From Microcoleus sp. D2_18a_B4 (GTDB taxonomy: Bacteria > Cyanobacteriota > Cyanobacteriia > Cyanobacteriales > Microcoleaceae): a stretch of 24,000 nucleotides of DNA. The notes under the pieces are model-generated. The model was not told where the DNA came from, ran no database searches, and saw only the letters and a list, made by a program, of their open reading frames with translations. The translations under genes and the position numbers were made by a program. The stretch lies in assembly GCA_036702475.1 (NCBI GenBank), contig JAUBTL010000010.1; one strand, given 5' to 3'. The stretch's first letter is position 1; every line of letters begins with the position of its first letter. Below, piece after piece: positions 2,112 through 15,130 of the stretch.

Positions 2112-4421
2112 TTAGCCTTCAGTGGGATAAGGTTTCTCCTGACTTGGTAGACTGGGAGTGCGGAAAATCGCAATAATCGCACGTACCACGAAGATAAACA
2201 TTGCCAGCGCCCCAATAGAAAAGATCACATCACCAGGAACCCTTGTCCAAACCGTCCAGTGCATCCATTGGGAACCCATCACCGTTTCACCCCGTGCATA
2301 CCAAGTTCCGTAATTGATCGACTGGGTAAGCTGGTAAAAACCATTCGGAATCGGCCCAAATAGCAGCATCACCACCAAACCAATATTTAGGAACCAGAAC
2401 GAGAACTTTAGCTGCTTCTCATTCCATACCGATTCCGGCGTAAATTCCCGCAGGGCAAACAACATTAGTGCTAATGCCAGCGACCCATACACCCCAAACA
2501 GCGCTCCATGCGCGTGAATAGCGGTTGTATTCAAGCCTTGAGAGTAATAGAGAATACTAGGCGGGTTGATCAGGAAACCAAACACCCCTGCCCCCACCAA
2601 ATTCCAAACGCAGGTAGCAATAAAGAACCGTAGAGGCCAGCGATAGAAACCTTCCGCCTCCCGTGAAAGCTTCAGCGTTTGCAACACCTCAAAGCCAATC
2701 AAGGTGAGGGGAATCACCTCCAAAGCAGAAAAGACAGACCCAACTGCCGCAATAAACACCGGAGTTCCCGAGAAATACAGGTGGTGCAGCGTTCCCACAA
2801 CACCACTACCCAAGTAGAGGATTGTAGTCAGATATGTTGCCCGTAATGCTGAGGACTTTTTCAAGAAGCCTAACTCACTACACAAGTAGGCAATCACCAC
2901 CGTGGCGAACACTTCAAAAAAGCCTTCGACCCACAGATGCACCACCCACCAGCGCCAGTATTCGGCAATACTCAACGGAGTCCGGTTCGTGTAGAACAGT
3001 CCCACCGAGTAGAACAGGGGAATCGTAATCGCACTGTAGAGGAAAAAGTGACTTAATCCTGTCGGGCTTTTCTCCTGTTGTAAAGCCGGGCGGAAGGCAC
3101 GGTACATCAGGAATAGCCAGAACACCATCGCCACAATCAGGAGAACTTGCCAGACCCGCCCTAACTCAATATACTCATAGCCTTGATGCCCCCACATAAA
3201 GCTATCTTCAATGCCGAGAATCCCTTGAATGGCGGCCCATGACCCCACAAGGGAACCCACCACCACAACGGTCAAAGCACCTAACAACACCAGGTTTCCC
3301 ACCGCCTGACCTTTCGGTTCAATACCTCCAAAGCGCGGCGCAAAGTAAAGTCCTGCAGCTAACCAGCAGGTAGCAATCCAGAATATCGCCAGTTGCACGT
3401 GCCAGGTGCGGGATGCTGCATAGGGAAGAAATTGTGCTAGGGGAATGCCATAAAAACTATCGCCTTCAACGGCATAGTGTGCCGTTACCATTCCCATCGC
3501 CATTTGCACCATAAATAGTGCCATTGCCACACCAAAAAAGAGTGAGGTGGTTTTCTGGCTGGCCGTCGGGATTCGCACGGTGGGACGAGTGGTGACCGAC
3601 TGGAGGTCGTCTACACTTTCACGAGTCAAGTAAAGCAGTAGAAATCCACCGGTTCCGGCAATCAGCAGCACCACGGAAATGATTGACCACAGAATGAATT
3701 GTCCGGGTTGTTCATTTCCAATCAGGGGGTCGTGAGGCCAATTGGCGGTGTAGGAAAAAGTCGCGTTGGGACGATTGGCGGCAGCAGCCCACGCAGTCCA
3801 GGCAAAGAACGCCGTGACATCATGAATCTGGGATGGCTCTTTAAACCAGCCATGCGGAATCGAGTGAATGACGGAACCGTAGGTCAGCAAATGTTCATAG
3901 TCGGCAAAGACTTGTTTTAGTCCCTGTGTCTGAGCGTCAGTCAGTAGCAATTTATGGGTGTTCGGGTCATACCGATTGGTTTTGAATTGCTCGCTGATTG
4001 TGGCTTGCAACGCTGCCCGTTCTGGTGCAGGCAATGCTTCTAAATCACTCTGGCTCATAGCGGGGTCATTGTTGTGCAAAACCCCGGCGGTGGCTAATCC
4101 CCAGCGATGCAATACATCTGCTGTCCAGTCGGGAGCGAGGTAGCTACCATGTCCCCAAATACTGCCGATGTGCTGACCACCCCTTGCTAGGTAAGTGGCT
4201 TGACCATCCTGAATCTGTGCTTTTGTGATCACAATCTCCTGTTTTGGAGACTGGATTACATCAGGTAAAGGGGGAGCATTTTTCCAAATGGCAGCCCCTG
4301 CTGCTAGGAGAGCGGTAAAAGCAATGATACAGATTAGTACCAACCAAGCCGGAAGACCTAGGGCTAATCGTCTATGAGGAGGTGCCAGTATTTCAGGACT
4401 GGCTATCTGAGAATCTGTCAT
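2112..4421 (-). CDS. norB: Nitric-oxide reductase large subunit, quinol-dependent type (qNOR; heme-copper oxidase superfamily)
   Basis: 769-aa polytopic membrane ORF. It has an N-terminal extension with a single transmembrane helix followed by a soluble domain. Heme-copper oxidase signatures are present: WWVVHLWVEGFFE, GTLHHLYF, HAHGALFGVYG. The length matches single-subunit qNOR rather than the ~450-aa cNOR NorB. Confidence 0.88.
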   Translation of the reverse strand: MTDSQIASPEILAPPHRRLALGLPAWLVLICIIAFTALLAAGAAIWKNAPPLPDVIQSPKQEIVITKAQIQDGQATYLARGGQHIGSIWGHGSYLAPDWTADVLHRWGLATAGVLHNNDPAMSQSDLEALPAPERAALQATISEQFKTNRYDPNTHKLLLTDAQTQGLKQVFADYEHLLTYGSVIHSIPHGWFKEPSQIHDVTAFFAWTAWAAAANRPNATFSYTANWPHDPLIGNEQPGQFILWSIISVVLLIAGTGGFLLLYLTRESVDDLQSVTTRPTVRIPTASQKTTSLFFGVAMALFMVQMAMGMVTAHYAVEGDSFYGIPLAQFLPYAASRTWHVQLAIFWIATCWLAAGLYFAPRFGGIEPKGQAVGNLVLLGALTVVVVGSLVGSWAAIQGILGIEDSFMWGHQGYEYIELGRVWQVLLIVAMVFWLFLMYRAFRPALQQEKSPTGLSHFFLYSAITIPLFYSVGLFYTNRTPLSIAEYWRWWVVHLWVEGFFEVFATVVIAYLCSELGFLKKSSALRATYLTTILYLGSGVVGTLHHLYFSGTPVFIAAVGSVFSALEVIPLTLIGFEVLQTLKLSREAEGFYRWPLRFFIATCVWNLVGAGVFGFLINPPSILYYSQGLNTTAIHAHGALFGVYGSLALALMLFALREFTPESVWNEKQLKFSFWFLNIGLVVMLLFGPIPNGFYQLTQSINYGTWYARGETVMGSQWMHWTVWTRVPGDVIFSIGALAMFIFVVRAIIAIFRTPSLPSQEKPYPTEG

Positions 4422-6168: not shown

Positions 6169-7447
6169 ATGACTCAAGAAAACAACTGGTTTGAGACAGC
6201 ACGATTGGGAATGTTTGTTCATTGGAGTCATAGCAGCCAGTGCGGGTACGAAGTATCAAAGGCGGTTAGTGGGAGGCGTCTTTAGCTTGCCGTACTGCCA
6301 AGATGTCCCGGTAGCCGACTATCACCGCAGCGCCCAAACTTTCAATCCGACTGAATACGACCCTCAAACTTGGGCGCATTTAGCGAAACGCTTGGGGATG
6401 CAGTATGTGATTTTGACGGCTAAACATCATGATGGATTTTCCTTATTTCATACCCAGGAATCCGACTTTTCTATCGAGTATGCGCCGTACAAAAAAGATA
6501 TTGTCCGAGAATTTGTGGAGGCGATGCGGGCGGAGGGTTTGCGAATTGGGTTGTATTTTTCCTTAATTGATTGGCATTACCCTGACTATCCGGCTTTCAC
6601 CGAAGCCGATAAACCGTATCAGTTTGGGAAATTCCGACAGCCGACGACTTCGAGCGTGGGAGCGCTACCTTGAATTTATGTTCGCTCAAGTCAAAGAATT
6701 GTTGAGCAACTACGGAGAGATTGACTTGAAGAGGTTTGATGGCGGTTGGGAGCGAAAGCCAGAGGAATGGCAAGCTAGACAGCTACATGAAATGATTCGC
6801 TCGCTGCAACCGCATTTGCTAATCAACTCACGCCTCAGAGGATTTGGAGACTTCGATACCTGCGAACAATTCATTCCCCCCCAACCGCCTCAACGTACTT
6901 GGGAAGCTTGCCTAACTCTGAATGAAAGCTGGGGTTATAACCCTCTATGACACCCAATTCAAGTCAGCTCGCCAACTTATTCATACCCTCTGTGAAGTTG
7001 CAGGTAAAGGTGGCAATCTGCTGTTGAATGTCAGCCCTATGGGCAACGGGCAGATTCAATCCGAACAATTGGATTTGTTGCAATTCGTAGAAGCATGGAT
7101 GAGTGTCCATGCCCAGAGTATCGTAGGAACACAGCCTGGACTGGAACCTTGGCAATTCTACGGCCCTTCTACTCGGCGGGGCAATCGCTTTTACCTATTC
7201 TTGCTGATGAAGCCCTACGAGTCAGTAACAGTAAGAGGTGTACCCATTAAACGGATTCAAGCCGTTTCTAAAGTCGCTGGAGGGGAATCATTACAATACT
7301 CAACTCGCTGTGCGATTGTCGATTCTATGTTAAGTCCCGATCCAAGGCGGGGAGTTAACGATTCAAGTGCCTGAACAAGCTCTCAATCCCTATGCTACGG
7401 TGATTGCAGTTGATATTGCTCCAGCCAATGATAGAACAAGGATGTAA
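6169..7447 (+). pseudogene. GH29 alpha-L-fucosidase, disrupted by four frameshifts
   Basis: One continuous fucosidase-like protein is split over five reading-frame segments: MTQENNWFETARLGMFVHWSHSSQCGYEVS | LVGGVFSLP...LTAKHHDGFSLFHT...LYFSLIDWHYPDYPAFTEADKPYQFGKFRQPT | WERYLEFMFAQVKELL...WEACLTLNESWGYNP | YDTQFKSARQLIHTLCEVAGKGGNLLLNVSP... | ELTIQVPEQALNPYATVIAVDIAP. The shifts lie at about 6255-6285, 6640-6672, 6935-6950 and 7335-7375. Confidence 0.85.
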
Positions 7448-7469
7448 CCAGTGTAGCGATCGCACTTCT

Positions 7470-7864
7470 TCACTTCCTACCCCAGTTGCTTTTGGCATCC
7501 AACTCAACATCACTCAGCATTTTGGGTGCCCTTTCGTACAAACCCCGCAGCACGACCTTGACATTAGGAAACGCGAAATACTTAGCTAGGCAGGCCGATG
7601 CAATGGGGGCTAGGGCGTGTTTTCTTGCCTCGTTGTATCCTAAAAATAGGCGATCGTAGGCAGGGAGTCTGGATGAATCGAGGAGACCAGCCCTGTCAAG
7701 GTGCGGGAAGCTAGTCGTTCAGTTAATGTCAATAAGCGGCCTGAATTTTCAAGAACCTTTAGGAAGAAGCGAAAATTCTTATAAATGCCTACAGTTGGAG
7801 ATATTTTCTTTGTAATCAACTCGTATAATTGTCCTATTCCCTCGAAAATTTCCACGTTAAACAA
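7470..7864 (-). pseudogene. Hypothetical gene apparently broken by one frameshift near 7640-7650
   Basis: The 74-aa ORF 7640..7864 ends ...IHPDSLPTIAYF*. An adjacent frame continues without a stop as FLGYNEARKHALAPIASACLAKYFAFPNVKVVLRGLYERAPKMLSDVELDAKSNWGRK* (stop at 7470-7472). No family assignment. Confidence 0.3.
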
Positions 7865-7974
7865 CCCTGACAGTCTCTAACAAACCCACCTATCATAGGA
7901 AGAATGTCTCAGACATCACAGGCGTGAGAAACTTAATTAAGTTAATCCCCCTCTAGCTGCAGTCCAGACGGGAT

Positions 7975-8157
7975 TTAAGGAGACTTTTTCCTTTTTGCCT
8001 CGGCAAGAAGTTTAGCAGTAGAAACATGAGGATGAGCTGGGTCATACGTTGGTTTGGGCTTGGATTTCTTTGGTCCTCGGACTGAAGAAGAAAATCTCTC
8101 AAGTCGTACTTGATTGGCTAAATCGTTTAGGGTGTTGCTAAATTCAGAGATAGTCAT
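7975..8157 (-). CDS. Small hypothetical protein (60 aa), divergent from tnpA; possibly a gene remnant
   Basis: ORF MTISEFSNTLNDLANQV...RGPKKSKPKPTYDPAHPHVSTAKLLAEAKRKKSP. The basic C-terminus resembles transposase tails, but I cannot assign a family. A hairpin (aatccc/gggatt) overlaps its stop. Confidence 0.3.
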   Translation of the reverse strand: MTISEFSNTLNDLANQVRLERFSSSVRGPKKSKPKPTYDPAHPHVSTAKLLAEAKRKKSP

Positions 8158-8191
8158 TTGCTGAAAAATTTGCTATGTTGGTTTGCAAGTA

Positions 8192-8629
8192 ATGACAACT
8201 ATTTACCGCAGGGAACGCCATTCTGTTACAGAACTTAAGATACACTTGGTCTGTGTGACAAAGTATCGTCGGTCTGTCTTCACAGGTGAAAGTATTGATT
8301 TGATTGAAAAGTCGTTTCGAGAGGTGGCTGAAAAAATGAATTTTCAAGTGCTGGAATTCAATGGCGAAGGCAATCATGTTCACGCGCTGATTGAGTATCC
8401 GCCTAAGTTGTTTATCTCTCAAATAGTTAACGCATTAAAAGGCGTTTCTAGCCGTCGTTACGGACAGGCTGGACATAAGAAGCCCCATAAAGAAGCATTG
8501 TGGAGTCCTAGCTATTTTGCTGTTTCTGTAGGGGGTGCGCCCTTAGAAGCTTTAAAGGAGTATATTAGAAATCAAGAAAAGCCGTCCACTGAAGAAGGGG
8601 CTGGTATCCCAATTTCTTGGTCAATCTAA
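8192..8629 (+). CDS. tnpA: IS200/IS605-family Y1 (HUH) transposase TnpA
   Basis: The ~145-aa ORF carries the family hallmarks: LKIHLVCVTKYRRSVF at the N-terminus, the HUH motif in GNHVHALIEYPP, SRRY, LWSPSYFAVSVGGAPLEALKEYI, and the catalytic-Tyr region. ATG at 8192 is the preferred start; the track ORF begins at TTG 8183. Confidence 0.9.
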   Translation: MTTIYRRERHSVTELKIHLVCVTKYRRSVFTGESIDLIEKSFREVAEKMNFQVLEFNGEGNHVHALIEYPPKLFISQIVNALKGVSSRRYGQAGHKKPHKEALWSPSYFAVSVGGAPLEALKEYIRNQEKPSTEEGAGIPISWSI

Positions 8630-9679: not shown

Positions 9680-10603
9680 TTAAAGCGGATTACTTTTTTT
9701 CCGCTCCGAATCCCATTCTGTTTTTTTTACATCTAACTCTTCGCGACGTACTGTGTCTGTTGCCTCAACCGTATCTTGCTCAACTTCTTTTCTGACTTGC
9801 ACTTCCTCGCGCACGAACGCTTGCTTTTTGATATTGACAGTTTGTTCGTAGATTTCAAAATGTGCCATTTCTTCTTGCTTGAAGGCGGTATCTGGAGTTA
9901 CTCGACTCCCTGCATATTCTGGAGTAGTGCGCTCAATCACAACTCGCTCTTTTTCTACAGGAAGCTGCAGTTGTACCGTTTTGGTTTCAACTTGCTTGCC
10001 AATTATTACCTCGCCTGTTTTGCGACGGGTTTTATCTGCAACTAATCGTTCTTCGTACAGTTTGAGTTTTTGATGATCCTGTTCGTTCATCTGATACAAT
10101 TGGGGCTCTTTATCGTAAGTATAGGTATCCCGGTCATAAGCAGGATTACTAGCTTGAGGCGAGACAGCATGCCGTGTAGAAACTCGAACAGGTGCTTCTA
10201 AAGGTAATGATGCTTCTACTGGTGCAGACCCTTCTACTGTTGCAGTCCGATAAATACCCCGCACTTGTTCTTCATAAGCGTAATCAACTGCCATCCCATG
10301 CTCATACCTGGGTAGTTTTTCCACTTGGTCTTTACTCCGCAAATTTGTAGCGTAAACACGCCGCCCATTAAAATCAATGCGACAAAGAGCGATGGGAAGT
10401 AAAACTTTTTTGTCAACAATCCAAGAACCAGTCTCTACCACAAAATAGCGGAAACGTCCTGTCTCATCTACCAGCACAGTATCGATCGTGCCAATTTTAT
10501 CATAGGTACTTCCGCCATACACATCCAGCCCTTTGATATCGTCGTCATCAAAAGCTGCTTGGCGGTAGTGGGGATTAAAATCTTCTATTTTGTAAAGTAA
10601 CAT
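9680..10603 (-). CDS. PRC-barrel plus DUF2382 (YsnF/AvaK-like) domain protein
   Basis: 307-aa ORF. The N-terminus looks like a PRC barrel (LDVYGGSTYDKIGTIDTVLVDETGRFRYFVVETGSW...KKVLLPI). The C-terminus has a duplicated DUF2382-type motif (LKLYEERLVADKTRRKTGEVIIGKQVETKTV...PVEKERVVIER; VREEVQVRKEVEQDTVEATDTVRREELDV). Confidence 0.8.
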   Translation of the reverse strand: MLLYKIEDFNPHYRQAAFDDDDIKGLDVYGGSTYDKIGTIDTVLVDETGRFRYFVVETGSWIVDKKVLLPIALCRIDFNGRRVYATNLRSKDQVEKLPRYEHGMAVDYAYEEQVRGIYRTATVEGSAPVEASLPLEAPVRVSTRHAVSPQASNPAYDRDTYTYDKEPQLYQMNEQDHQKLKLYEERLVADKTRRKTGEVIIGKQVETKTVQLQLPVEKERVVIERTTPEYAGSRVTPDTAFKQEEMAHFEIYEQTVNIKKQAFVREEVQVRKEVEQDTVEATDTVRREELDVKKTEWDSERKKSNPL

Positions 10604-10796
10604 TGTTGTTTCCTGTACCTATGTACATCAAGCCCTCTACCTACTTTAGATAGATATCAGTTCTAATACTTCCATCTTATGAATGATTCAGCAAATTGAA
10701 AATCATCAAGATAGGGAGATTTTTTTATATTTTTCTATCTTTAGGTAGATGATTTTAGCTCTCCCGTACTGAGGGTGATAAATTTATCTAATCATT

Positions 10797-10895
10797 CGTA
10801 GGTTGGGTTGAGCCAAAGGAAGCCTCCGTTTCACTCCGCCCAACTATCTCAGGCTAACCAGTTGGCTTTCGTTCCCAGGGCTCCAACCTACAACC
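10797..10895. repeat. Small hairpin-forming intergenic element bounded by inverted repeats
   Basis: cgtaggttgggttgagcc (10797-10814) is the imperfect reverse complement of gggctccaacctacaacc (10878-10895). The 'gtaggttgggttgag' motif resembles short dispersed repeats common in filamentous cyanobacteria. Only one copy is in this window, so copy number is unknown. Confidence 0.35.
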
Positions 10896-11169
10896 TTTAT
10901 GCCAAAAGCTCTCACAAGGATTTCTCAGGTTTTATTATGACCTCAACTAGGGGAGAGCCTACAAAATTAAGGGCATCTATAAGTAGCTGCTGGGGTTTTT
11001 TCTGAATGAGATTTCGATTGATGAGCGAAATTACTACTTTTGAGCCTTAAAATAATCAAATTAAAAACTATTATGCCCCTCGGTAGATATTCTAGTAATA
11101 TTTATTAAGTAAAATTAAATTCCCATCAATGGGAAAAAAGTAACAACGTAACGCAGGGGTTAATCTTTT

Positions 11170-11781
11170 ATGACTTATCCAGATCGATCGGGCAGTCCAC
11201 TCACTGATCCTACAATCGTCAATCCGCTGGTGGATTACCACGATCAAGTGAGGTGGGGGCCAATTTTGGCAGGAATTGCGATCGCTCTGGGCACTCAACT
11301 AATTTTAAGCGCTTTGGCAATGGCGATCGGATTAACCGCAGGTGCAACAGGCGCGGATGCAGGTTCCGTTGGTTTTGGGGTCGTAATTTGGTCGATTATC
11401 AGTTTGCTGATTTCCCTATTTTTGGGCGGTTGGGTAATGGCTCAAAGCTGCGGGCCGATGACCAAGAAAACAGCATTTTTGAATGCAGCAATTCTTTGGG
11501 GAACTACATTAGCACTTAGTGCTTGGTTATTAGGAAGCGGGATATCGGGTGCTGTTGGCGCTGCGGCTGCTAATGCTGGAGAAATTGCCAATCAAGTACA
11601 ACAACAGGGCGGCGTTAATATACCGAATCAAGCGCCGAATGTAGACCCAAATCAAGTTCGCGATATAGCTGGTAATACAGCTAAAGCTGTTTGGTCATTT
11701 CTACTTGGCTCTTTGCTGGGTTTGGCAGGGGCAATGAGTGGTGCTGCTCTTGGCGCTCGCAAACCTCGCGTTTATGCTTGA
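11170..11781 (+). CDS. Hypothetical integral membrane protein (Gly/Ala-rich, about 4 transmembrane segments)
   Basis: 203-aa ORF with several hydrophobic stretches (ILAGIAIALGTQLILSALAMAIGL; VVIWSIISLLISLFLGGWVMA; AAILWGTTLALSAWLLG; WSFLLGSLLGLAGAMSGAALG). It contains a HIP1 site at 11278-11285, consistent with a native gene. Confidence 0.65.
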   Translation: MTYPDRSGSPLTDPTIVNPLVDYHDQVRWGPILAGIAIALGTQLILSALAMAIGLTAGATGADAGSVGFGVVIWSIISLLISLFLGGWVMAQSCGPMTKKTAFLNAAILWGTTLALSAWLLGSGISGAVGAAAANAGEIANQVQQQGGVNIPNQAPNVDPNQVRDIAGNTAKAVWSFLLGSLLGLAGAMSGAALGARKPRVYA

Positions 11782-11795
11782 TTAGCGGTCAACCA

Positions 11796-11829
11796 CCCAC
11801 CACTAATCGGAGTACCGATATAGTGGGGG
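11796..11829 (+). repeat. Left subterminal imperfect hairpin of the IscB element
   Basis: CCCACCACta-atcgGAGTACcgata-taGTGGGGG. The stem carries a conserved A/G mismatch. Stem and loop core match the hairpin at 13327-13361. Confidence 0.65.
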
Positions 11830-12035
11830 CACAGAAATTGCCAAGTTGACCAGTCTAGGTGTTAAATCACTACGTTTAAGGCAAGTGTTAAAGACCTACC
11901 AGAGAATGCGTTGCTAGTTCTGTGCTCTAGAACTTAAAAGTTAAACAGGTGTAAGGGTTAAGCCAGTGCTTTTAAGATAGTTACCGACCTTAAACATTGA
12001 CGAAGCTAACATTACCCCGAAAGGGAGGACTTAAA
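11829..12035 (+). ncRNA. Candidate IscB omega RNA (HEARO-type scaffold); the 5' end, including the guide, is not resolved and may start further upstream near 11782-11800
   Basis: The 254-nt stretch between the upstream stop (11781) and the iscB ATG has no credible ORF. It contains nested complementary segments: 11829-11836 gcacagaa / 11918-11925 ttctgtgc; 11933-11940 cttaaaag / 11969-11976 cttttaag; 11874-11881 gtttaagg / 11988-11995 ccttaaac (possible pseudoknot); and a CCC-GAAA-GGG tetraloop hairpin at 12016-12025 that runs into the GGAGG Shine-Dalgarno sequence. The position and orientation, immediately 5' of iscB, are those reported for omega/HEARO RNAs. Confidence 0.6.
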
Positions 12036-13307
12036 ATGTCTAACTTTGTTTTTGTACTAGATACCCAAAAACGACCGCTCAATCCAATCCACCCAGGAAT
12101 GGCCCGTAAATTGCTAACTAATGGCAAAGCTGCTGTTTTTAAAAGGTATCCATTCACACTAATTCTCAAGGTAGAGGTGACAGCAACCCAAAAACCAATC
12201 ACTCTCAAAATAGACCCTGGCTCTCAAACCACTGGATTCGCATTACTGCAACGAGAAAAAGTAATCTTTGGTGCCGAACTAACTCACCGAGGTCAAGCTA
12301 TTAAAGCCAGCCTTGAATCTCGTCGTTCATTGCGTAGAGTCCGGAGGAATCGCCATACTCGCTATCGTCCAGCTAGATTCCTAAATAGAACTCGCCTTAA
12401 AGGTTGGCTAGCCCCAAGTTTGCAACATCGCGTTGAAACAACTATAACATGGGTGACTAAATTGATGAAAGTAGCCCCCATTGTTTCTATTGTTCAAGAA
12501 CTTGTGCGGTTTGACTTACAACAATTAGAAAACCCGGAAATTTCTGGAATCGAGTACCAACAAGGCGTTTTGTGTGGCTACGAGGTTCGCGAATACTTGC
12601 TCAACAAATGGGAGAGAAAGTGTGCTTACTGTGGTGTTACAAATACACCATTACAAGTCGAACATATTCATCCTAAAGCTAAGGGTGGTTCTAATCGTAT
12701 TTCTAATCTTTGCCTTGCTTGTGAAAAGTGCAATATCAAGAAAGGAACTCAAAATATAGAGCAATTCCTGTCTAAAAAGCCAGAGGTTTTAAAACGGGTT
12801 TTGTCTCAAGCAAAGCGTTCTTTAAAAGATGCGACAGCAGTCAATTCAACTCGTTGGGCATTATTTAATCGGCTTAGCATGATTGGTTTGCCTGTTTCTA
12901 CTGGCAGTGGTGGCTTAACAAAGTTCAATCGCACTCGATTAAGTCTAGCTAAAACTCACTGGTTAGATGCAGCTTGTGTAGGGAACGTTGAATCGCTGAA
13001 AATTTTAACAAACAAGCCGTTGTTAATTAAAGCTACTGGGCATGGGACGCGCCAAATGTGTCGTACCGATAAGTTTGGATTTCCATGTCGCTATGTTCCC
13101 CGGCTTAAGTTTGTTAAAGGTTTTCAAACTGGAGATATTGTCAAAGCAATCGTTACTTCTGGCAAGAAAGTTGGTAAATATGTTGGGCGTGTTGCCGTTA
13201 GAACGAGTGGTTCATTTAATATTGCCGCATCAGAATTGGTGTCAGGGGTTAGCCACAAATATTGTTCAATTATTCACAGAAAGGATGGTTATTCGTATGC
13301 AGCATAA
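12036..13307 (+). CDS. iscB: IscB, RNA-guided DNA endonuclease of the OMEGA family (split RuvC with inserted HNH; Cas9-ancestor type)
   Basis: 423 aa counted from ATG 12036, with GGAGG 7 nt upstream; the track's TTG 11997 start adds 13 aa that I consider unlikely. The domain order is complete: PLMP-like N-terminus (VFVLDTQKRPLNPIHPGMARKLL...AAVFKRYPFTLIL); RuvC-I (KIDPGSQTTGFALL); Arg-rich bridge helix (SRRSLRRVRRNRHTRYRPARFLNR); RuvC-II (IVQELVRFDLQ...GIEYQQG); HNH (CAYCG...LQVEHIHPKAKGGSNRISNLCLACEKCNIKKG); RuvC-III (THWLDAACVG); and a C-terminal TAM-interaction-like domain (GFQTGDIVKA...GKYVGRVAVRTSGSFNI). Confidence 0.9.
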   Translation: MSNFVFVLDTQKRPLNPIHPGMARKLLTNGKAAVFKRYPFTLILKVEVTATQKPITLKIDPGSQTTGFALLQREKVIFGAELTHRGQAIKASLESRRSLRRVRRNRHTRYRPARFLNRTRLKGWLAPSLQHRVETTITWVTKLMKVAPIVSIVQELVRFDLQQLENPEISGIEYQQGVLCGYEVREYLLNKWERKCAYCGVTNTPLQVEHIHPKAKGGSNRISNLCLACEKCNIKKGTQNIEQFLSKKPEVLKRVLSQAKRSLKDATAVNSTRWALFNRLSMIGLPVSTGSGGLTKFNRTRLSLAKTHWLDAACVGNVESLKILTNKPLLIKATGHGTRQMCRTDKFGFPCRYVPRLKFVKGFQTGDIVKAIVTSGKKVGKYVGRVAVRTSGSFNIAASELVSGVSHKYCSIIHRKDGYSYAA

Positions 13308-13313
13308 ACCTTG

Positions 13314-13374
13314 CCCCCCTTGGACTCCCACCACGCTCCCTGAGTACAGGTGAGCGTGGGGGTCTCCAAGGGGG
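13314..13374 (+). repeat. Right subterminal hairpin of the IscB element (may double as the iscB terminator)
   Basis: The inner stem-loop CCCACCACgctc-cctGAGTACaggt-gagcGTGGGGG (13327-13361) is homologous to 11796-11829. It is extended by an outer stem cccccttggac / gtctccaaggggg. It starts 7 nt after the iscB stop. Confidence 0.65.
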
Positions 13375-13442
13375 AAGACAGATGAACGAGCTAAAAACCT
13401 TTTATAAGGTTTGGGCATAGAGATTTAAAAGAAGATGAAGCG

Positions 13443-13994
13443 ATGCAACAGCAGAGGATCTGGCAAAAATATACAAGGTTAACAAGTTCGATCTTGTTAA
13501 CGGCAACGGTTTTAGTTGCTCCCTCGTTCGCCGCTGATAGAAATCAAAAACAGATTCAAGGTGAATCTTTACTAGCGCAAGTACCCGATAGCTGTCGCCA
13601 GGTTATTGCGAGGAATGGTCTTAATGTTCGGCGACAACCGACGGCTAACAGCGAAGCGGTTGGCACCATCGGTTCCGCACGAAATGTGACGATTCAAAGT
13701 CTTGGTGAGAATGGCTGGGTACCAATTACAGCCCCGCTACAAGGCTACGTATATGGTGGTTTTCTCGGATTGTGTGAAGCCGCAACCGCCCCGCCTCCTA
13801 CTAACTGCCGCCAAGTTGCAGCCGCCAGAGGAATTAACGTACATCAAGCACCTTCCACTGATGGGGAAAGGGTTGGAGTCGTCGCGAGTGGACGAAGAGT
13901 GACGATTGAAAGTTTAGGAACGGATGGTTGGGTGCCGATTACAGTGCCTGTGAGAGGCTACTTCCAAACTGAAAACCGGGCGTATTGTAGTTAA
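13443..13994 (+). CDS. Secreted protein with two bacterial SH3 (SH3b) repeats
   Basis: 183-aa ORF with a signal-like N-terminus (LTSSILLTATVLVAPSFA). It has an internal duplication: CRQVIARNGLNVRRQPTANSEAVGTIGSARNVTIQSLGENGWVPITAPLQGYV and CRQVAAARGINVHQAPSTDGERVGVVASGRRVTIESLGTDGWVPITVPVRGYF. Confidence 0.8.
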   Translation: MQQQRIWQKYTRLTSSILLTATVLVAPSFAADRNQKQIQGESLLAQVPDSCRQVIARNGLNVRRQPTANSEAVGTIGSARNVTIQSLGENGWVPITAPLQGYVYGGFLGLCEAATAPPPTNCRQVAAARGINVHQAPSTDGERVGVVASGRRVTIESLGTDGWVPITVPVRGYFQTENRAYCS

Positions 13995-15130
13995 TGGAAA
14001 AAACAGTGATGGATCACCAATCAAAGCCAAAAAAAGAAACTAATTCACAGCAAAAGTCTGGTTGGTTAAATTTCATTGCCGAGACAACAGAATCTGCACT
14101 GAATACAGGCAAAGCGGTTGTTGAAACAGCAGTTAATTGGGGGGAAGCTGCTGCTAAACAAACTTATCGATTGATTGGACAAGCGACGCAAGGAACCGGA
14201 GATGCGGTAACTTATGTTGGCAATTTTCCCTTTGTTAAACAAGTGGCAGGGGTACTCAGGCTTGATTGGTTAGTTGGGGTCAGCGATCGCATCGACTTAG
14301 CTAAAGCCGAAGCTCAAGTCAAGGAACTCCAACAAAAGTATCCCAATGAATATCCCAGCGAAATTGCCCATCGCATTATGGTGGAAAAAGCGATTCACGC
14401 CGGTGGTGTTGGATTTGCTAGCAGCATTTTACCCGGTGTCGCGGCTGCACTGCTGGCGATCGATCTAGCCGCGACTACTGCGATTCAAACCGAAATGGTT
14501 TATGAAATTGCCGCCGCTTATGGGATGAATTTGCAAGAGCCAGCCCGAAAAGGCGAGGTTTTGGCAATTTTTGGGTTAGCGCTAGGCGGTAGCAACGCAA
14601 TGAAAGCTGGTTTGGGCTTTTTACGCAACGTACCGCTGGCTGGCGCGATGATTGGTGCGAGTACGAATGCTACGATGCTGTACGCGCTGGGATATGCGGC
14701 GCGCCAGTTTTACGAAGCCAAACTGAGGGAAGATACTGAAGAACCTGGAACCGAAACGCTGCAAGCGATCCAGCAACAAAGCGAGAAATATCTCGATGTT
14801 GCGATCGCGCAGCAAGCAGGGATGGATCAAATTATGGTTCACATGATTTTGGCAAGTTATCCCAACAAAAACTGGGAAGATATTCTGCCAGAATTGAAGG
14901 CATTGCAATTAAATGCGGATTCTCTCAAAAGGATTGCTGCTAACATCAAGTCCCCTAAACCATTGGGTGCATTGTTAGAGCAACTTAACCCCGACTTTGC
15001 AGTACCGCTATTAGCTCAATGCCGTCGCATTGCCGAAAATAGCGGAGAGGTTTCCGAAGCAGAACAGAAGGTGCTGGATGCGATCGCACAAAAACTCAAC
15101 GGTCAAGATGTGGCTTCGATATCCGCTTGA
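13994..15130 (+). CDS. EcsC/DUF697-like protein with a C-terminal helical (TerB-like) region; function unknown
   Basis: 378-aa ORF. Its start overlaps the preceding stop (TAATG at 13992-13996). The core GGVGFASSILPGVAAALLAIDLAATTAIQTEMVYEIAAAYGMNL...EVLAIFGLALGG resembles the EcsC/DUF697 type. It contains three HIP1 sites. The start could be the downstream Met at 14009. Confidence 0.7.
   Translation: MEKTVMDHQSKPKKETNSQQKSGWLNFIAETTESALNTGKAVVETAVNWGEAAAKQTYRLIGQATQGTGDAVTYVGNFPFVKQVAGVLRLDWLVGVSDRIDLAKAEAQVKELQQKYPNEYPSEIAHRIMVEKAIHAGGVGFASSILPGVAAALLAIDLAATTAIQTEMVYEIAAAYGMNLQEPARKGEVLAIFGLALGGSNAMKAGLGFLRNVPLAGAMIGASTNATMLYALGYAARQFYEAKLREDTEEPGTETLQAIQQQSEKYLDVAIAQQAGMDQIMVHMILASYPNKNWEDILPELKALQLNADSLKRIAANIKSPKPLGALLEQLNPDFAVPLLAQCRRIAENSGEVSEAEQKVLDAIAQKLNGQDVASISA

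Follow-up and report, generated by a model that had tools for sequence, protein, structure and literature searches.

Within the window, a 24-kb stretch of Microcoleus sp. D2_18a_B4 DNA analysed as a whole, an iscB gene lies downstream of a structured leader and of a co-oriented ORF of 203 aa (11170-11781, stop codon at 11779-11781); the features of the locus are listed in Table 1. The upstream ORF has no Pfam match, and an exact look-up of its protein gave nothing; its orthologues came from a homology search. Elsewhere in the window, a 150-aa ORF at 6922-7374 on the plus strand matches PF01120 (alpha-L-fucosidase) over positions 291-344 of 345 only, and is possibly a gene fragment.

The iscB product matches the Pfam family RRXRR (3.1e-73) as well as HNH, and aligns to the solved structures of TbaIscB (1.8e-37) and OgeuIscB (7.5e-28). 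Its RuvC residues D60, E155, H308 and D311 fall opposite D61, E193, H340 and D343, the RuvC catalytic residues of OgeuIscB (PMC9640706). The protein also carries an N-terminal PLNP motif (PLMP type) at residue 14, an HNH motif at E209-H210, and an arginine-rich bridge helix, RRSLRRVRRNRHTRYR, at residues 96-111. The ORF at 12036-13307 is an intact IscB with all catalytic residues present.

Table 1. Coordinates of the element, its RNA and its gene in the window.
Feature	Position	Strand	Evidence
Whole non-autonomous IS200/IS605-type (ISC) element, 1594 bp	11788..13381	+	blastn boundaries, empty alleles
Putative omega-RNA guide, 16 nt, TTATGCTTGATTAGCG	11772..11787	+	flank at sharp conservation edge, empty alleles
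Omega-RNA scaffold	11788..12015	+	Rfam HEARO match, RNAalifold, covariation
Guide-adaptor stem, enclosing long hairpin 11797-11829	11788-93/11845-50	+	
Outer 'nexus-like' stem	11853-57/11997-12001	+	
Multi-branch stem	11874-81/11988-95	+	
Hairpin	11900-07/11917-24	+	
Hairpin	11933-41/11968-76	+	
Pseudoknot, 5' half, loop UGCU of hairpin 11900-24	11912..11915	+	covariation
Pseudoknot, 3' half, AGCU	12004..12007	+	covariation
Terminal GNRA hairpin, CCC-GAAA-GGG	12016..12025	+	beyond Rfam model end; covariation
iscB, 423 aa	12036..13307	+	Pfam RRXRR + HNH, alignment to IscB structures
Subterminal imperfect hairpin, far transposon end	13315..13374		DNA fold, conserved in 17 copies
ATGA, target/transposon-adjacent motif (TAM)	13382..13385	+	20/20 copies, most empty alleles

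The interval between the two genes (11782-12035) had been described in the initial annotation as free of any plausible ORF and as a candidate omega (HEARO-type) guide RNA placed 5' of iscB, and both descriptions hold. The ORFs touching the interval are all artefacts: one of 52 aa is an out-of-frame overlap, another of 72 aa lies antisense, and the third is iscB lengthened to a TTG. The covariance-model search that the annotation had suggested for the leader was positive: cmscan against Rfam 15 returned a HEARO (RF02033) match at 11788-12015 on the plus strand, scoring 130.6 bits where the gathering score is 83 (E = 3.2e-27) and spanning the full model (positions 1-211 of 211), and this is the single Rfam match in the window. 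The scaffold ends at about 12025, just ahead of the iscB ATG at 12036 and on the same strand, which is the placement that characterizes HEARO RNAs. Among 17 diverse, more distant relatives, 16 have a HEARO match at or above the gathering score in the same place upstream of iscB (125-156 bits, with the 3' end 20-35 nt ahead of iscB).

The leader at 11788-12015 is an ordinary member of the HEARO/omega-RNA family and the guide RNA predicted for a small IscB transposon; the RNA family is a known one, and the locus is a routine case of a well-described system. Like the HEARO/IscB omega-RNAs of the OgeuIscB, GstIscB and KraIscB types, it shares the strand of iscB and sits directly 5' of the gene, and it has in common with the HEARO/OMEGA systems a guide-adaptor stem, an outer stem, a multi-branch core, a pseudoknot between a loop and the 3' tail, a terminal hairpin, and a guide drawn from the DNA that flanks the end of the transposon. 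It differs from the Rfam HEARO consensus in three respects: its first hairpin has 17 additional nucleotides, GG pairs with CC in the inner multi-branch stem (11880-81/11988-89) where the Rfam alignment pairs differently, and the GNRA terminal hairpin lies past the model end. These differences are inside the known variation of the family.

Two other Rfam results came from the related loci. In Planktothrix sp. PCC 11201 (L034), full HEARO matches lie about 500 nt apart at 3042-3258 (minus strand) and 3756-3978 (plus strand), forming two elements back to back on opposite strands with their guide ends facing each other. A Pseudanabaena metagenome-assembled genome (L046:477-763, minus strand) gives a full-model match of 100 bits to 5_ureB_sRNA, a family described from Helicobacter; this match probably reflects conserved ureB coding sequence.

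Structure of the leader RNA

For the structural analysis, 23 copies were aligned with MAFFT (alignment A1), and the Rfam structure was mapped onto them via the window row. RNAalifold on A1 gives the HEARO architecture independently, with compensatory changes in 25 of 65 pairs. In the Rfam structure 90.1% of cells are paired; shuffling gives 84.4%, and sliding the partners by one to three columns 28-42%. Of its 62 pairs, 19 have changed on both sides, a count that none of 500 shuffles equalled. The compensatory changes among homologous copies that the initial annotation had proposed as a check are present under both structures. Single-sequence folding of 11772-12040 gave an MFE z of -1.28, no better than shuffles, and mispaired the guide with distal sequence, and it was rejected as evidence; because thermodynamic folding is unremarkable, the case for an RNA rests on the covariance model and on covariation.

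Three 8-nt complementary pairs had been read from the raw sequence: 11829-36/11918-25 (stem 1), 11933-40/11969-76 (stem 2) and 11874-81/11988-95 (stem 3). All three do occur in the sequence; stems 2 and 3 are borne out as covarying helices, and stem 1 is not. Stem 2, at 99.5% paired, is the Rfam structure's helix 10. Every cell is paired (100%) in stem 3, which has compensatory changes at four pairs and matches the Rfam consensus in the outer six; the two G-C pairs at its inner end, which Rfam reads otherwise, fit better than Rfam's own alignment of the window sequence. In stem 1, by contrast, pairing reaches 67.9% of cells and 70.2% after shuffling, with 484 of the 500 shuffles equal or better. 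Its perfect 8 bp hang on a C-to-G change at 11922 that is private to the window copy: in L001 and L016, which are orthologous, the C is present and the covarying hairpin 11900-07/11917-24 stays intact. Stem 1 is a chance match.

Stem 3 had also been thought to cross stem 2 as a pseudoknot would. In fact it encloses stem 2, the two being nested, and the sole crossing among the three stems is that of stem 1 with stem 3. The true pseudoknot is formed by 11912-15 (UGCU) with 12004-07 (AGCU). It was located by reference to its counterpart in the OgeuIscB omega-RNA, the nexus pseudoknot stem (PMC9640706), and then tested for covariation: 96.7% of cells are paired, a value matched by one shuffle in 500, and the outer pair is U-A in ten copies, A-U in eight and U-G in two. 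The square-bracket pairs in the Rfam structure line, considered as another candidate for the pseudoknot, were rejected; in WUSS notation they denote a nested outer stem. In the window copy only three of the four pseudoknot pairs form, the outermost being a U.U mismatch (11912/12007). The same mismatch is found in L003 and L026, and L001 restores the pair by a U-to-A change. The private C-to-G change at 11922 likewise leaves a G.G mismatch (11902/11922) in a covarying hairpin of the window copy.

The hairpin loops of some omega-RNAs carry insertions of about 10-35 nt, the remaining scaffold being unchanged. These were seen in L029 and L037 (A1 columns 80-110), in L047 (A1 columns 160-183) and in L074, and one of them lies in the pseudoknot-forming loop.

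The terminal CCC-GAAA-GGG hairpin had been noted as adjoining the Shine-Dalgarno sequence, and the arms (12016-18/12023-25), the GGAGG and the ATG at 12036 are all as described; the 3' arm (12023-25) in fact overlaps into the GGAGG (12024-12028). The hairpin is paired in 94% of cells, and its inner pair occurs as C-G, A-U, G-U and U-A among the copies. Its position past the model end is in line with the report that RF02033 is without downstream structural elements (Meers et al.). The conservation of this hairpin and its overlap with the ribosome-binding sequence would suit a leader acting mainly in cis on iscB translation, for example by occluding part of the Shine-Dalgarno sequence, but such an account leaves the remaining 220 nt and the family's known trans-acting role unexplained, and we regard it as very improbable. 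Cis-regulation could be an additional role of the leader, not an alternative to its reading as an omega-RNA.

Element ends, guide and flanking motif

Eighty loci encoding relatives were collected by a scan of one genome per species; most belong to filamentous cyanobacteria, Microcoleus among them. Boundaries were determined by blastn of window positions 10501-14500 against these loci, and the junctions of 20 copies were aligned. Where the surroundings are unrelated, similarity begins at 11788 (in a few copies at 11785-87) and stops at 13385-13390. To the left of GTCAAC (11788) the sequences of copies at different sites are unrelated among the 20, and on the right all 20 read ...GGGGGAAGA(C/A)AGATGA before variable sequence begins. 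The element thus has the termini 5'-GTCAAC...GAAGACAG-3'. ATGA adjoins all 20 copies compared and occurs once in the filled allele, and there is no target duplication.

Seven insertion-free alleles were reached via orthologues of the 203-aa upstream protein. In most of them ...gcttgattagcg (...gtttatgcttgattagcg) is directly followed by ATGA, with ATTA at that position in L085 and ATAA in L207. Because the empty alleles join the guide sequence to ATGA, the left junction is exact and ATGA is part of the target and not of the element. The sharp loss of 5' conservation that had been proposed as the mark of the guide falls exactly at 11788, and the guide is accordingly placed in the flank at 11772-11787, its 16-nt length being taken from the literature (PMC9640706). 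This region is host flank outside the element and spans the last codons of the upstream gene and its stop codon, in keeping with the earlier expectation that a guide would lie at the junction of element and flank and might overlap the 3' end of the CDS at 11170-11781. The sequence TTATGCTTGATTAGCG is present once in the window. The excised state would read as guide-matching sequence followed by ATGA, the order of target and then TAM that is expected for IscB.

At the far end, the subterminal hairpin at 13315-13374 folds as DNA at -29 to -30 kcal/mol (z about -7 on either strand) and is kept in 17 copies, with compensatory changes at three pairs. Its inner stem, CCCACCAC/GTGGGGG, resembles the first hairpin of the scaffold (11797-11829). 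This end is the 'left end' in the sense of TnpA, since iscB reads antisense to the top strand of the transposase, and the likeness of the two hairpins is as would be expected for the two TnpA-binding ends of an IS200/IS605 element. That same likeness could be taken to mean that the conserved structure is merely transposon-end DNA, bound by TnpA as a hairpin, followed by an ordinary 5' UTR and without any guide RNA. TnpA, however, requires one subterminal hairpin only, whereas the covariation covers about 240 nt and includes long-range stems and a pseudoknot, and the leader matches in full the model of a family shown experimentally to act as IscB guide RNA; an explanation by DNA ends seems to us scarcely credible.

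The element joins defined ends (11788 and 13381) and subterminal hairpins at both of them to a specific motif at the insertion, as is characteristic of ISC elements, a class that is also marked by the lack of terminal inverted repeats. A close described parallel in organization is the cyanobacterial ISC1-1_MA (Kapitonov et al. 2016, PMC4810608), which is likewise non-autonomous, carries iscB only, is about 1.6 kb long, begins with 5' GTCA, has subterminal hairpins, and inserts directly 5' of ATGA without target duplication; the rule of N and then ATGA, the 5'-GTCA terminus, and the ...CG before ATGA were described for it (PMC4810608). It differs in host (Microcystis, against Microcoleus here), in sequence family, and in its 3' terminus (...CG, against ...GACAG). 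Eighteen ORFs of the window are at least 130 aa long, and the 15 of them that were scanned include none with a Y1 transposase domain; with no tnpA in the 24-kb window, the element is non-autonomous, as are about 98% of iscB loci (Meers et al.). The TnpB omega-RNA (reRNA) of IS605 is comparable in being derived from a transposon end, in using the flank as guide, in having a TAM in common with TnpA, and in its proposed role in homing. It differs in lying 3' of its gene and in having the guide at its own 3' end, and both the RNA family and the RuvC-only nuclease are unrelated; this system does not apply to the locus.

All seven empty alleles, namely L081 (3613-3710), L083, L084, L085, L086, L207 and L208, contain an intergenic segment of 88 bp, flanked on one side by the ATGA next to the guide sequence and on the other by a second ATGA. 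The three filled alleles (the window, L001 and L016) are without it and resume at the second ATGA (junction 11787/13382-13386 in the window). Insertion and the 88-bp deletion are therefore perfectly associated, since 7/7 empty alleles keep the segment and 3/3 filled alleles lose it. The element may have inserted at the first ATGA, the DNA between the repeats being deleted afterwards; or two insertions may have occurred side by side and their copies then recombined. That the loss is a footprint of flank remodelling, through adjacent ATGA insertions with recombination or through TnpA cleavage at the second ATGA, strikes us as unlikely. If true, such remodelling would change the combination of target and TAM that the guide of the element defends, and if general it would give IscB elements a route for deleting host DNA and shifting their homing site. 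An intermediate allele, carrying the element and still keeping the 88 bp, would have either of two junctions, the element end with ATGA and taaaaccagaaaattc or ctttcttggagaag with GTCAAC, and either would reveal the original ATGA. A metagenome scan for such an allele with the 16-mer GACAGATGATAAAACC gave, among the matches listed, chance matches only and none with the element end; the pattern is too short for such a scan.

In one of the empty alleles, on a Microcoleus-type metagenome contig, the 203-aa host gene is followed after about 0.6 kb by a TnpB gene (OrfB_IS605; L208:1207-2448), which lies within or beside an SH3-domain gene. The neighbourhood has drawn elements of the IS200/IS605 type more than once.

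Constraint on the gene and its RNA

L001 and L016 carry the same insertion as the window, the strains being about 95% identical; since the insertion is common to all three, the element has not recently moved. Codon differences in iscB from the window copy are mostly synonymous (26 synonymous and 8 nonsynonymous for L001, 20 and 5 for L016), and the gene, its catalytic residues intact, is under purifying selection (synonymous to nonsynonymous about 3-4 : 1). Identity between the orthologous copies is 98.8-99.6% in the omega-RNA region; the neighbouring host gene reaches 95.8%.

These comparisons bear on whether the element is an inactive relic, in which RNA and gene are recognizable and function has been lost. 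Such a relic could account for the two mismatches in covarying helices of the window copy (G.G at 11902/11922 and U.U at 11912/12007), for the lack of a tnpA nearby, and for an insertion fixed in three related strains, and some relatives are visibly broken: iscB is frameshifted in L026 (4001-5265) and has an internal deletion of about 145 bp in L061 (1941-1946). Against it stand the full-length ORF with all its catalytic residues, the excess of synonymous differences, an omega-RNA more conserved than the neighbouring host gene, and a model score far above threshold, and we consider loss of function improbable here.

Among the other relatives, L005 has the 5' end of the element partly duplicated (3165-3241). 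In L001 a second, divergent iscB-like stretch (7186-8336; 65% nucleotide identity) lies about 1.9 kb downstream of the first, and it is missing from the corresponding part of the window.

Proposed activity and significance

The only sigma-70-like promoter near the element on the plus strand lies at 11047-74, ahead of the upstream gene; a scan for sigma-70-type consensus sites found none on that strand over 11075-13600. At 23 of 29 distinct insertion sites the upstream ORF (called crudely, from stop to stop) is co-oriented with iscB (p = 0.0012), an orientation bias of upstream genes at iscB loci that has already been published (Meers et al.). Such co-orientation agrees with read-through transcription as the likely supplier of the guide.

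Beside the RNA and protein families, element ends, guide flank, ATGA, covariation, and intact catalytic residues observed at this locus, published work on the family (10.1101/2023.03.14.532601, PMC9640706, PMC4810608) suggests how transcription, the use of a 16-nt guide, cleavage and homing would proceed. Transcription would enter from the host side, most likely by read-through from the co-oriented 203-aa gene, so that the RNA would start with flank sequence (the guide, ~11772-11787) and continue into the scaffold of about 240 nt, from 11788 to ~12025. IscB would bind this RNA of flank plus scaffold, and the complex would recognize double-stranded DNA in which ATGA follows a match to the guide. 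That combination would be the scar, or donor joint, left after excision by a TnpA encoded elsewhere; IscB would cut the scar by its RuvC and HNH sites, and recombination with the sister chromosome copy would restore the element. We hold it very probable that 11788-13381 is a non-autonomous insertion of the IS200/IS605 family (ISC), with iscB and a 5' omega-RNA (HEARO) scaffold, and that it works in this way.

A reading of the raw sequence made without tools had thus recognized an IscB omega-RNA correctly, and annotators are now supplied with coordinates for the element ends, the guide, the TAM and the pseudoknot. The comparison further yields a Microcoleus family of IscB nucleases that are compact (423 aa), apparently use ATGA as TAM and come with numerous natural variants of the omega-RNA; the family may be of interest for genome-editing screens.
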